Of a stretch of 42,950 nt of DNA, positions 3,001 through 6,000 are shown one piece after another. The DNA lies in the IMG/VR virus record IMGVR_UViG_2778261513_000004, one strand, 5' to 3'. This stretch comes from a virus. Taxonomy: Duplodnaviria > Heunggongvirae > Uroviricota > Caudoviricetes. Position numbers: made by a program. Position 1 is the first letter of the stretch. Every line of letters starts with the position of its first letter.

Positions 3001-6000
3001 CCTGGCTTTTGCTTCGCTAAGTTGCTTTTGCTGCTCTGTCAGGCGATTAAAAGCTGTTCCGACAGGATCGAGTTGAGCAATCAGACGTTGCAAAGCAGCA
3101 ACCTGTTCATCATGCGCTTTTGCTGCTTCTCGTTCTGCCTGAGCCTCTCCTGTTAGCTCTCGCCGCGTTTCCTGTATTTTTCGGCTGTAATTATCAAACT
3201 GAGAGCCATTTATTTTCCCGGATGAAAGTGCTGCATTAAGTTCATCCTGCTGTTGGTCAAGATTTCTTAGCGCCGCGGCCAGAGGGTCGATCTTGTCCAG
3301 CATTCTTTGAAAGGCCTGAGCCTGCGCTTCCTGCTGGGCAGCAGCAAGTTTTCCGGCCTTCGCGGCTTCTCTCTGCGCTTGCGCAACCCCGCTCAATTCC
3401 GCTGTAGTTTCATTAAGTTTACGGGCAAGAAATTTATATTCTTCTTTATCAATAAGCCCTTTGCCGAAATATTTCTTTAATTCAGAATAGCGTCGACCGA
3501 CAGTATCAATTGCGGCACCTACAGGATCAATAGCTGCCTTTAATTTTGCGAGCGCGTTCTTCTCATCTTCTGTTGCCCTGGTCACTTTCCCTGCGCTATT
3601 TGCAGCAGTTTCTCCGGCCTGCGTCATTTTGACCAGGGAGGAGGTCAGATTGTCAGCATTATTTTTCGCTCCAGTGCTATCAATAATTATTGCAAGACGC
3701 GAAGTTTGCTCTGTCATTTAGTTACTCCGGACAAATAAAAAGCCCCGCTTGATAAGCGGGGCCAGACAACAGAGGAAAGGAAATTATCAGAAACGATAAC
3801 CAATACCGGTCATCCAAGTACCTACTTTCACATCGCCCAATTTGGTGTACTCATAGGATGCGTCAACTACCCAATTTGGTACAGGATTAAACTGAATACC
3901 AGCACCATATACAACCGAAGTCTTGCTTGAAGAGTCAGAGTATCCCAGAATCGTCGCTTCAGCACGTCCATGCGCTACACCTAATAAGCCATATGCACTG
4001 AAGTAATCATTGAAACGATAGGCTGGACCGGCAGCTAGTGAATAGTAATCCAGTTCTCCATTTCCAATTTTAGAGCCTGCAAAATAATAATCGTATTCTT
4101 GATTTGTGTACGTAAATGAAGATGCAACGCCCCATTTATCATCCAGCTCATAGCGATACTTAATATTTACCCCTGAAGGATTCTCATCAAGGCTTTCTCC
4201 ACCGGCTTTAACATGGCTTTGGGCATAACCAAGAGAAATAGTATTCTGCTTCAATTCAGCATTTGCAATGCCAGTTGCAAACAAGGCTGAAGCGATAATG
4301 GTAGTCAACACTGCTTTTTTCATAAAATCACCGTCATTTCACAAATCATTGTTATAACAGCCAGAATTAATCTGGCTGGCAGCATTAAAATATCCACCAC
4401 ATTCGATAGTCAACTATCAATCTCTCATCAAACTATATGTGTGCACATTGTAATTCAGACAATTACTAAAAAATATTAAATTAATTAATCAATATCCCAT
4501 CAACAGTTTTGGATTGAGAAACATACTGATCATCCAGCGCAAAGATCACTGCTTCAAATTCATCACTATCTATCAATATTGGGTGTGCTTTTAAGTAGTC
4601 GTGCACGTCAGATATTGATAAAGGCAGCGGAACCCCGGACATGCCCGCATAACGCCTGGAACGAGACATTACTGAGTACGCATACAATAACTCACGGACA
4701 ACGGGGTCTATTTCTGGCTCCGGTATCGGTGGCAACCTGAGTTTTTCTCTCGTCCACCTTGCCTTTTCCCCCTTTTCGCCCCCGAACTCCGATAACCACC
4801 GCTGGGCGGCTATGGCTTTTTTATCGTATCCTGCTTCTGCTGCTCTTTTCCCTGGGCGATGCTGGCGGCTTCAGCAAGAATTTGCCAGTACAACTCTGGA
4901 TTCTGCTTGAGCAGCGTGGCCCCTCGCTCTGGTGTATATTCCAGCGCGACCTCAACCCCATCCACCAGTTCACCAACCCCTTTCCAGTCTTTCAGTAAAT
5001 AACGAGCGGCGTTATCAATAAGTAAATCATCAACAGAATCCACCTCGTCGACCTTTGCAATATCAAATTCTTTCGTTCCGACATGCAAACTGGCATCCAT
5101 TTTCTCTATGTGACGACGGATTAATGCATTACGGGAGCGATACTGATCGTTATCGCTGCTTGCCACCAACAGTTTTAACCCATCTACAGGTTTTAAGTCC
5201 TTCATTGGCGTAAACCAGCGTTCTCCACCGATGATAATTTTCTGATTAAGAATAAACATCCATAACCTCATTCAAAACGTCCCTGTAGTGCAACACCACA
5301 GGGGAAATAACGGAAAATCAACTAATCGCCTCAGCACTGGCTTTTGCGATCACGGCAGCCGGAGAGGCTTTTTTTCTGGTTATCGTAGGCGCTTCATCTG
5401 CTGCGGTAATACTCAGTTGAACCTGGATAATGTCGGTATTACCACCGTCAGGCCATTCACCTGACACCTGAACCTTCGGAAAACTGAAAGTGTATGCCCC
5501 CTCTCCATTCGAAAGCGTGAAGCTGAACGGAACTGTTTCTCCAGTCAGTGTTTTACTCCAGATTTCCCACGCAGCTTTAGACCATGAAAGCGTCACCGTA
5601 CCGGACGGTGTAAAGGTAGTAGGAATATTTGCTCCTGCATAAGGCGAGCCAGTCCCGATACAACGCTGAGTCTGGAGTTTGTTATCGAACTGAATATCAA
5701 AACTGTCGATACAAAAACCGTTACCTCCGGCAACACCATTCAGGCTTACTGCTGAAACCTCTTTAAACGAATAACGTAGCTCTCCTGCGCTATCCACAGG
5801 TTCGCCTGTGATAAAATTCGTATCATCGGCCTTTGATTCCCAGTCCAGCCCGGCAAAGGTTACGGTCGCCGTAATATCACCATCGTTAGGGATCTGCATT
5901 TTCCATGACCCCACCTGCGCTCCTCTGATGACAGAGGCAATTCCGACATCGGACGCATAGGTCGCCAGAGAAAATGTTATTCGCTCATTTCCCATTGTCA

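Follow-up and report, generated by a model that had tools for sequence, protein, structure and literature searches.

HK97 gene 15 was the first element to be called a moron, and it occupies the slot that separates the GT tail assembly chaperone from the tape measure gene. Small outer-membrane protein morons are carried in or beside the tail genes of other prophages, including lambda (Lom), K-12 Rac (LomR), and Gifsy-2 and Fels-1 (Lom-like proteins), and these share one Pfam family. Lom has been associated with adhesion (PMC3594210), and proteins of the Ail family with complement resistance and adhesion (PMC8508112). Yersinia Ail (3QRA/3QRC, 2N2L) is chromosomally encoded as a 178-aa precursor with a signal peptide, an 8-stranded barrel, and a C-terminal GYRF.

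The locus described here lies in a 42,950-nt stretch of viral DNA (IMG/VR record IMGVR_UViG_2778261513_000004), referred to as the window; positions are those of the window unless another source is named. An Ail-type gene is found between the tail chaperone and tape measure genes of a Rac-type tail module, where most related modules have a short spacer.

An Ail-type gene in an LT-II toxin prophage

Around the locus, the window shares 99.9% identity with E. coli E21845/O/A and with further type II enterotoxigenic strains, and it differs by indels from the near-identical genome NZ_CP076272.1. The element is located at the Rac attachment site, adjoining ttcA. Its gene order runs from a Q-like late antiterminator (22884..23426, minus strand; PHROG 753 'anti-termination protein Q-like', 9.2e-76) through the EplBA AB5 toxin genes, the lysis genes, and the LT-II-like A and B genes to those for head and tail. 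The genes for the LT-II-like heat-labile enterotoxin A (18891-19670, minus strand; PHROG 'enterotoxin CtxA') and B (18533-18934, minus strand) lie just downstream of the lysis genes (18533-19670 together), and because of them the element is assigned as an LT-II toxin prophage of type II enterotoxigenic E. coli (ETEC). Rac-like LT-II prophages have reportedly been described by Jobling, and this element is one of that kind. Two open reading frames at 21238-22495 (minus strand), immediately downstream of the Q-like antiterminator, correspond by position to the AB5 pair annotated by RefSeq in the near-identical genome (a subtilase-family AB5 binding subunit and catalytic EplA). Two RNAs scored above the Rfam gathering thresholds: the RalA antitoxin sRNA of RalR/RalA (41216-41394, minus strand, 197 bits) and the sok antitoxin RNA beside hokD (25035-25210, minus strand, 105 bits).

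The tail genes are arranged on the minus strand in the order tail tube (5318-6280), G, T, spacer, ail, terminator, GGAG, and tape measure. Chaperone G (4810..5271, minus strand; PHROG 313, 1.1e-46) forms the left flank and lies outside the cassette. The T frame (4481..4852, minus strand; PHROG 1189, 1.6e-31) is reached from G by a -1 programmed frameshift and ends at a stop codon at 4481-4483. Three-frame translation with a phase check identified two in-phase -1 slippery heptamers, G GGA AAA (4852-4846) and A AAA AAG (4822-4816), and the G/GT label given in the earlier note is therefore sound. RefSeq/PGAP has no G/GT frameshift model for this region (window 4481-5271, minus strand; 6132-6491 in the retrieved locus L001); only the C-terminal 119 aa of G are annotated, as 'hypothetical protein' or YdaY, and the T frame is unannotated in several genomes. 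The right flank is a 1077-aa tape measure protein (484..3717, minus strand; TMP_2 5.8e-81, Tape_meas_lam_C 1.5e-25, PHROG 24). Its start region (3715..3728, minus strand), read from the sequence, consists of a GGAG ribosome-binding site at 3728-3725 and an ATG at 3717-3715.

The ail-type gene is an intact reading frame at 3787..4323 (minus strand, stop codon included) that begins with ATG and encodes 178 aa. The product matches Pfam Ail_Lom PF06316 (2.9e-27, 96.2 bits, cut-off 23), Pfam OMP_b-brl PF13505 (5.8e-27, 95.4 bits, cut-off 28.7), and PHROG 108 'Lom outer membrane protein' (9e-47), and so scores above the curated sequence threshold for the Ail/Lom/OmpX/PagC/Rck family (PF06316). Both this identity and the flanking genes are as originally proposed. 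RefSeq already labels the gene 'Ail/Lom family outer membrane beta-barrel protein'. The paper on the LT2d outbreak contains no mention of lom or ail.

A Sec signal peptide was predicted at residues 1-22 (MKKAVLTTIIASALFATGIANA|E; MKK...ANA|E), and the protein ends in ...GYRF, with the aromatic last residue typical of the family. In an AlphaFold2 model built with 39 homologues (pLDDT 88.2), residues 4-15 form an N-terminal signal helix and eight long strands follow, so that the model combines the signal peptide, 8-stranded antiparallel barrel, and C-terminal aromatic residue by which the family is recognized. The top Foldseek matches were Ail and OmpX, and the model superposes on Y. pestis Ail (3QRC) with a TM-score of 0.93-0.94 and an rmsd of 1.3-1.8 Å. 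A missing barrel had been named as grounds for rejecting the assignment; the barrel is present in the model. From the model, the product is predicted to be located in the outer membrane with surface-exposed loops.

Searches against PDB sequences ranked Y. pestis Ail (3QRA, E = 8.8e-56) ahead of OmpX (4e-29) and lambda Lom (3e-17). Identity to Yersinia Ail is 54%, without gaps across all 178 residues, and identity to lambda Lom is 31%. The product scored 134.1 bits against the NCBIfam equivalog model for OmpX (NF006917), below its cut-off of 176, and is therefore not regarded as an OmpX orthologue. It also falls short of the cut-off of the NCBIfam 'resistance to complement killing' equivalog. 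By these sequence comparisons, the protein is nearer to Yersinia Ail than to OmpX or Lom and is of the Ail type. The 'lom/ail' label of the earlier note thus names the right family, and its 'lom' half is loose.

Anatomy and distribution of the cassette

When 5426 complete E. coli genomes were searched with a 1.9-kb query spanning the junction, 1076 proved to have the Rac-type tail module. The cassette was covered in 20 of these 1076 genomes and was missing from about 98%. A query with the cassette alone returned exactly the same 20 genomes, with a single copy in each and always at the junction of GT and the tape measure gene. The same flanks without the cassette are found in Salmonella phage SPF_0923, in nine vB_EcoS phages, and in K-12 Rac (ydaY-ynaA), all of which have a 165-bp spacer instead. 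Homology to the empty site stops at about 4520, some 13 codons before the T stop codon, and restarts at about 3722, just before the tape-measure ATG. By these alignments the cassette spans about 3722-4520, or roughly 0.8 kb, and the positions of the two breaks mark a replacement bounded by gene ends. The last 13 or so codons of T (below about 4520) therefore fall inside the variable cassette.

Between T and ail lies an AT-rich spacer of 157 bp (4324..4480, minus strand; 31% GC), which the comparison with empty sites places in the same variable cassette. The earlier note had drawn the unit at 3735-4323; its start takes in a real terminator, and its end leaves out this spacer. The GC content of the cassette is 0.40 (spacer 0.31, ail 0.42), a modest difference from the flanks at 0.44-0.50.

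The terminator that the note had ascribed to the gene is present. It is an intrinsic terminator at 3731..3763 (minus strand; GGCCCCGCTT-ATC-AAGCGGGGCT then TTTTATTTGT), with a hairpin at 3763-3741 that has a 10-bp stem including 7 G-C pairs, followed by a T-run (-18.3 kcal/mol, z = -4.35 versus shuffled sequences). The hairpin ends 24 nt before the tape-measure ATG, and the terminator is also conserved in the divergent allele B described below. An Rfam scan of the window and one empty-site phage returned no RNA family at the GT-tape-measure junction.

A strict sigma-70 scan of 3300-5400 returned zero promoters on the coding (minus) strand. The best sigma-70 candidate in a relaxed hexamer scan is TTGACT (4413-4408), 18 nt, and TTTAAT (4389-4384), which agrees at 10 of 12 positions and lacks the A at -11. 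The block around the candidate -35 (TTGACT) is kept in all three cassette alleles, with the spacing shifted in allele B. A promoter belonging to ail is thus putative and weakly indicated. In alleles A and A', two hairpins are predicted in the ail leader (4319-4378, minus strand): one of 8 bp at 4378-4358 and one of 10 A-U and G-U pairs that sequesters the AUG, which has a probability of being unpaired of 0.06 at 37°C. An RNA thermometer was considered for this leader and dropped, since the AUG hairpin opens little between 25 and 42°C. No AUG-sequestering hairpin was predicted in allele B or in the chromosomal or Yersinia homologues, and because the prediction is confined to A and A', it is probably not a conserved regulator. 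Sequence upstream of the chromosomal homologues (L007, L008) did not align to the cassette leader.

Three alleles were distinguished. Allele A, that of the window, is found in 12 genomes; allele A', about 95% identical to A, in 7 genomes, mostly porcine ETEC; and allele B, which encodes 185 aa and is 57% identical, in 1 complete genome and one IMG/VR contig. The ail reading frame is intact in all 20 genomes and all three alleles. Between A and A', dN/dS is about 0.10 for the barrel (membrane plus periplasmic part) and about 0.96 for the extracellular part, from small counts of 8 synonymous and 10 non-synonymous changes in total. At the DNA level, A and B are 85-95% identical at the signal peptide and at the 3' end with the terminator, and 30-50% identical at loops L1, L2, and L3. 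A conserved scaffold with fast-evolving exposed loops fits the pattern expected of a functional surface protein. In porcine ETEC prophages with A' (E. coli ETEC1730, L006 6553-7250), an IS1 element splits the tape measure gene while ail is intact; these prophages are defective because of that split. In strain JCKP02 (NZ_CP195759.1), the cassette is 100% identical to that of the window and the 1.9-kb region including the flanks is 97% identical, a pattern that hints at cassette exchange between diverged Rac-type prophages.

The nearest protein relatives of the ail product are 60-70% identical and are chromosomal, in non-phage contexts; one of them adjoins a Salmonella fimbrial operon, and another adjoins thrS in a different enterobacterium. 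Among GenBank phage records, none exceeded 45% identity to the ail product. Since the nearest relatives are non-phage and GenBank phages lack a closer one, the comparison fits capture of a bacterial ail gene by the prophage.

Among the features by which morons are recognized (Juhala/Hendrix), the cassette shows absence from close relatives, a factor-independent terminator, and deviating base composition; for the fourth, an own promoter active in the repressed prophage, it has the 10/12 hexamer candidate and the negative strict scan. On these comparisons the cassette is an optional accessory moron and not a tail assembly gene. The earlier note had called it a moron, a view that would have fallen had related phages uniformly carried the gene as part of tail assembly, and the comparison of relatives upholds it.

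The 'empty' junction has content of its own. In SPF_0923 (L002 4802-4966), it contains a 29-aa reading frame, MMVSLIKSMMLLEKSIAWPRNRYIYYYVA (4833-4922), then a hairpin with a T-run terminator (4921-4944), then the tape-measure ribosome-binding site. The same spacer is found in about 1050 E. coli genomes, including K-12 at ydaY-ynaA (L005 about 3160-3325), where ydaY is what remains of tail chaperone G, and ynaA is a piece of a tape measure gene. A PHROG search with the 29-aa predicted product gave no match. A predicted 29-codon reading frame and terminator directly before the tape-measure ribosome-binding site suggest a standing cassette site, and the 29-aa product could be an unrecognized mini-moron.

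Proposed mode of action and alternatives

We give a probability of about 85% to the reading that the locus is a classic moron with an Ail-type cargo, expressed in the lysogen from its own weak promoter, read through under Q, and of benefit to the host at its surface. The self-contained cassette of about 0.8 kb takes the place of the short GT-tape-measure spacer of a Rac-type lambdoid module. In the lysogen, ail would be transcribed, most likely from the weak sigma-70-type promoter in the AT-rich spacer, with transcription stopping at the cassette terminator. The precursor would be exported by Sec and cleaved, as predicted, after Ala22 to a mature protein of about 156 residues, which BAM would insert as an 8-stranded barrel with four loops on the cell surface. 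During lytic growth, Q-modified polymerase would pass the terminator into the tape measure gene, the Q-like antiterminator of this prophage being the likely reason for the read-through. This read-through, which we infer from the lambdoid paradigm, would leave tail assembly undisturbed. The host benefit proposed by homology is complement resistance and/or adhesion to host cells or matrix, and a benefit at the host surface fits a prophage that also bears LT-II and EplBA toxin genes.

The empty strict promoter scan on the coding strand would also suit a late phage gene without its own promoter, made only in lytic growth from the Q-antiterminated transcript and serving the phage, perhaps by altering the envelope as the cell dies or by keeping progeny off debris. 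In its favour are the co-orientation of ail with the late operon, its place downstream of the Q-like antiterminator, and, in A and A', a start codon predicted to lie sequestered in the leader hairpin. However, the 157-bp AT-rich leader with its conserved TTGACT block and the strong terminator form the layout of morons that are transcribed on their own, for instance HK97 gp15, made from the prophage; and Lom, Ail, Rck, and PagC work in living cells. This explanation is considered unlikely. A role in conflict between phages, with superinfecting phages excluded or receptors masked at the outer membrane, rather than in host interaction, would draw on the slot shared with the superinfection-exclusion moron gp15 and on surface loops that evolve fast, as in an arms race. 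Immune or host-ligand selection would equally give fast loops, however, and the ail product has no homology to gp15 or known exclusion proteins; its homology is to the adhesins and serum-resistance proteins of the Ail/OmpX type. We regard such a role as very improbable.

The position of ail within the tail assembly block, co-oriented with the tail genes, might also be expected of an integral, conserved tail-module component or of a decaying remnant rather than a mobile accessory gene. The presence/absence survey refutes this reading, to which we attach practically no weight: about 98% of collinear tail modules, including those of complete phage genomes, are without ail. The intact reading frame, the purifying selection on the barrel, and a signal peptide with the fold of an outer-membrane barrel, not of a virion protein, also speak against it. 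A broader proposal starts from the empty junction and is doubtful as a whole. It would make the GT-tape-measure junction a dedicated cassette-exchange site occupied by a mini-unit that always ends in a terminator and lies directly 5' of the tape-measure ribosome-binding site, whether the unit carries the 29-codon reading frame (about 98%) or one of at least three Ail alleles. The 'empty' state would then encode a small moron protein, and the terminator would have a role of its own, for example in setting the chaperone to tape measure ratio or in insulating tail genes in the lysogen.

Comparison with Ail, Lom, and HK97 gene 15

The ail product shares with Yersinia Ail the 178-aa precursor length, signal peptide, 8-stranded barrel, and C-terminal GYRF, and differs in being encoded on a prophage cassette rather than on the chromosome. 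Loops L1-L3 are the parts most divergent from Y. pestis Ail, and the net loop charge is about -4 (acidic) in the ail product versus +3 (basic) in Y. pestis Ail; the basic patches are not conserved. Judged by divergence and net charge rather than by the individual published residues, the ligand-binding loops of Y. pestis Ail are not retained. Because the loops are divergent and oppositely charged, the ligand specificity and phenotype of Y. pestis Ail are not transferable to this protein. E. coli OmpX shares the fold and family, with 40-42% identity in structural alignments. The Lom-like proteins of lambda, K-12 Rac, Gifsy-2, and Fels-1 share the Pfam family and the character of prophage-borne small outer-membrane morons in or beside tail genes, but are only 31-42% identical to the ail product.

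The slots used by these genes differ. Lambda lom lies between J and stf, and K-12 Rac lomR before stfR. In Gifsy-2 and Fels-1 the Lom-like gene is flanked by M and L, whereas ail lies between GT and the tape measure gene. At the J-stf junction of NZ_CP076272.1, a 59-bp gap precedes the tail fibre gene without lom, and ail is the sole family member in the region. A slot survey covered 148 Ail-family loci from IMG/VR and GTDB genomes, classed by their neighbours. The T-H junction was used only in the Rac-type module, on 7 viral contigs. Further tail-embedded copies lay at H-M, at L-K in Xenorhabdus, after the tape measure and two more genes in Proteus, and behind a lambda Stf-like tail fibre gene at Serratia loci. 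For most of the remaining loci, no tail-gene neighbour showed up among the reference proteins used. Six survey contigs with about 44% identity match Salmonella phage SJ46. The insertion point had been described in the earlier note as unusual, and this does not hold: HK97 gene 15 occupies the same slot, the Lom-like genes of Gifsy-2 and Fels-1 are embedded between M and L, and other tail junctions are used too.

The prophage gains one more candidate virulence or fitness gene beside the LT-II and EplBA toxins of type II enterotoxigenic E. coli, and the product is an Ail-type surface protein whose similarity to the Yersinia virulence factor exceeds that to every phage Lom. Ail/Lom cassettes can use essentially any junction among the clustered tail genes of a siphovirus, the archetypal HK97 moron slot included. 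Because a RefSeq annotation exists and both the type of cargo and the slot are textbook, the value of the locus is modest and lies in annotation and strain-level pathogenomics of LT-II E. coli, not in new biology.

The closest parallel in arrangement is HK97, where gp13/gp14 (-1 frameshift) lead into gp15 ('moron product'), after which come a putative terminator and then the tape measure gene, as here. The terminator lies 12 nt from the tape measure gene in HK97 and 24 nt here, and gene 15, like ail, is absent from close relatives. The cargo differs: HK97 gp15 is a 62-aa YebO-like inner-membrane superinfection-exclusion protein, whereas the ail product is a 178-aa outer-membrane barrel with no sequence relationship to it. 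An Ail cargo in the T-H slot is thus an uncommon pairing in which neither the cargo nor the slot is new.
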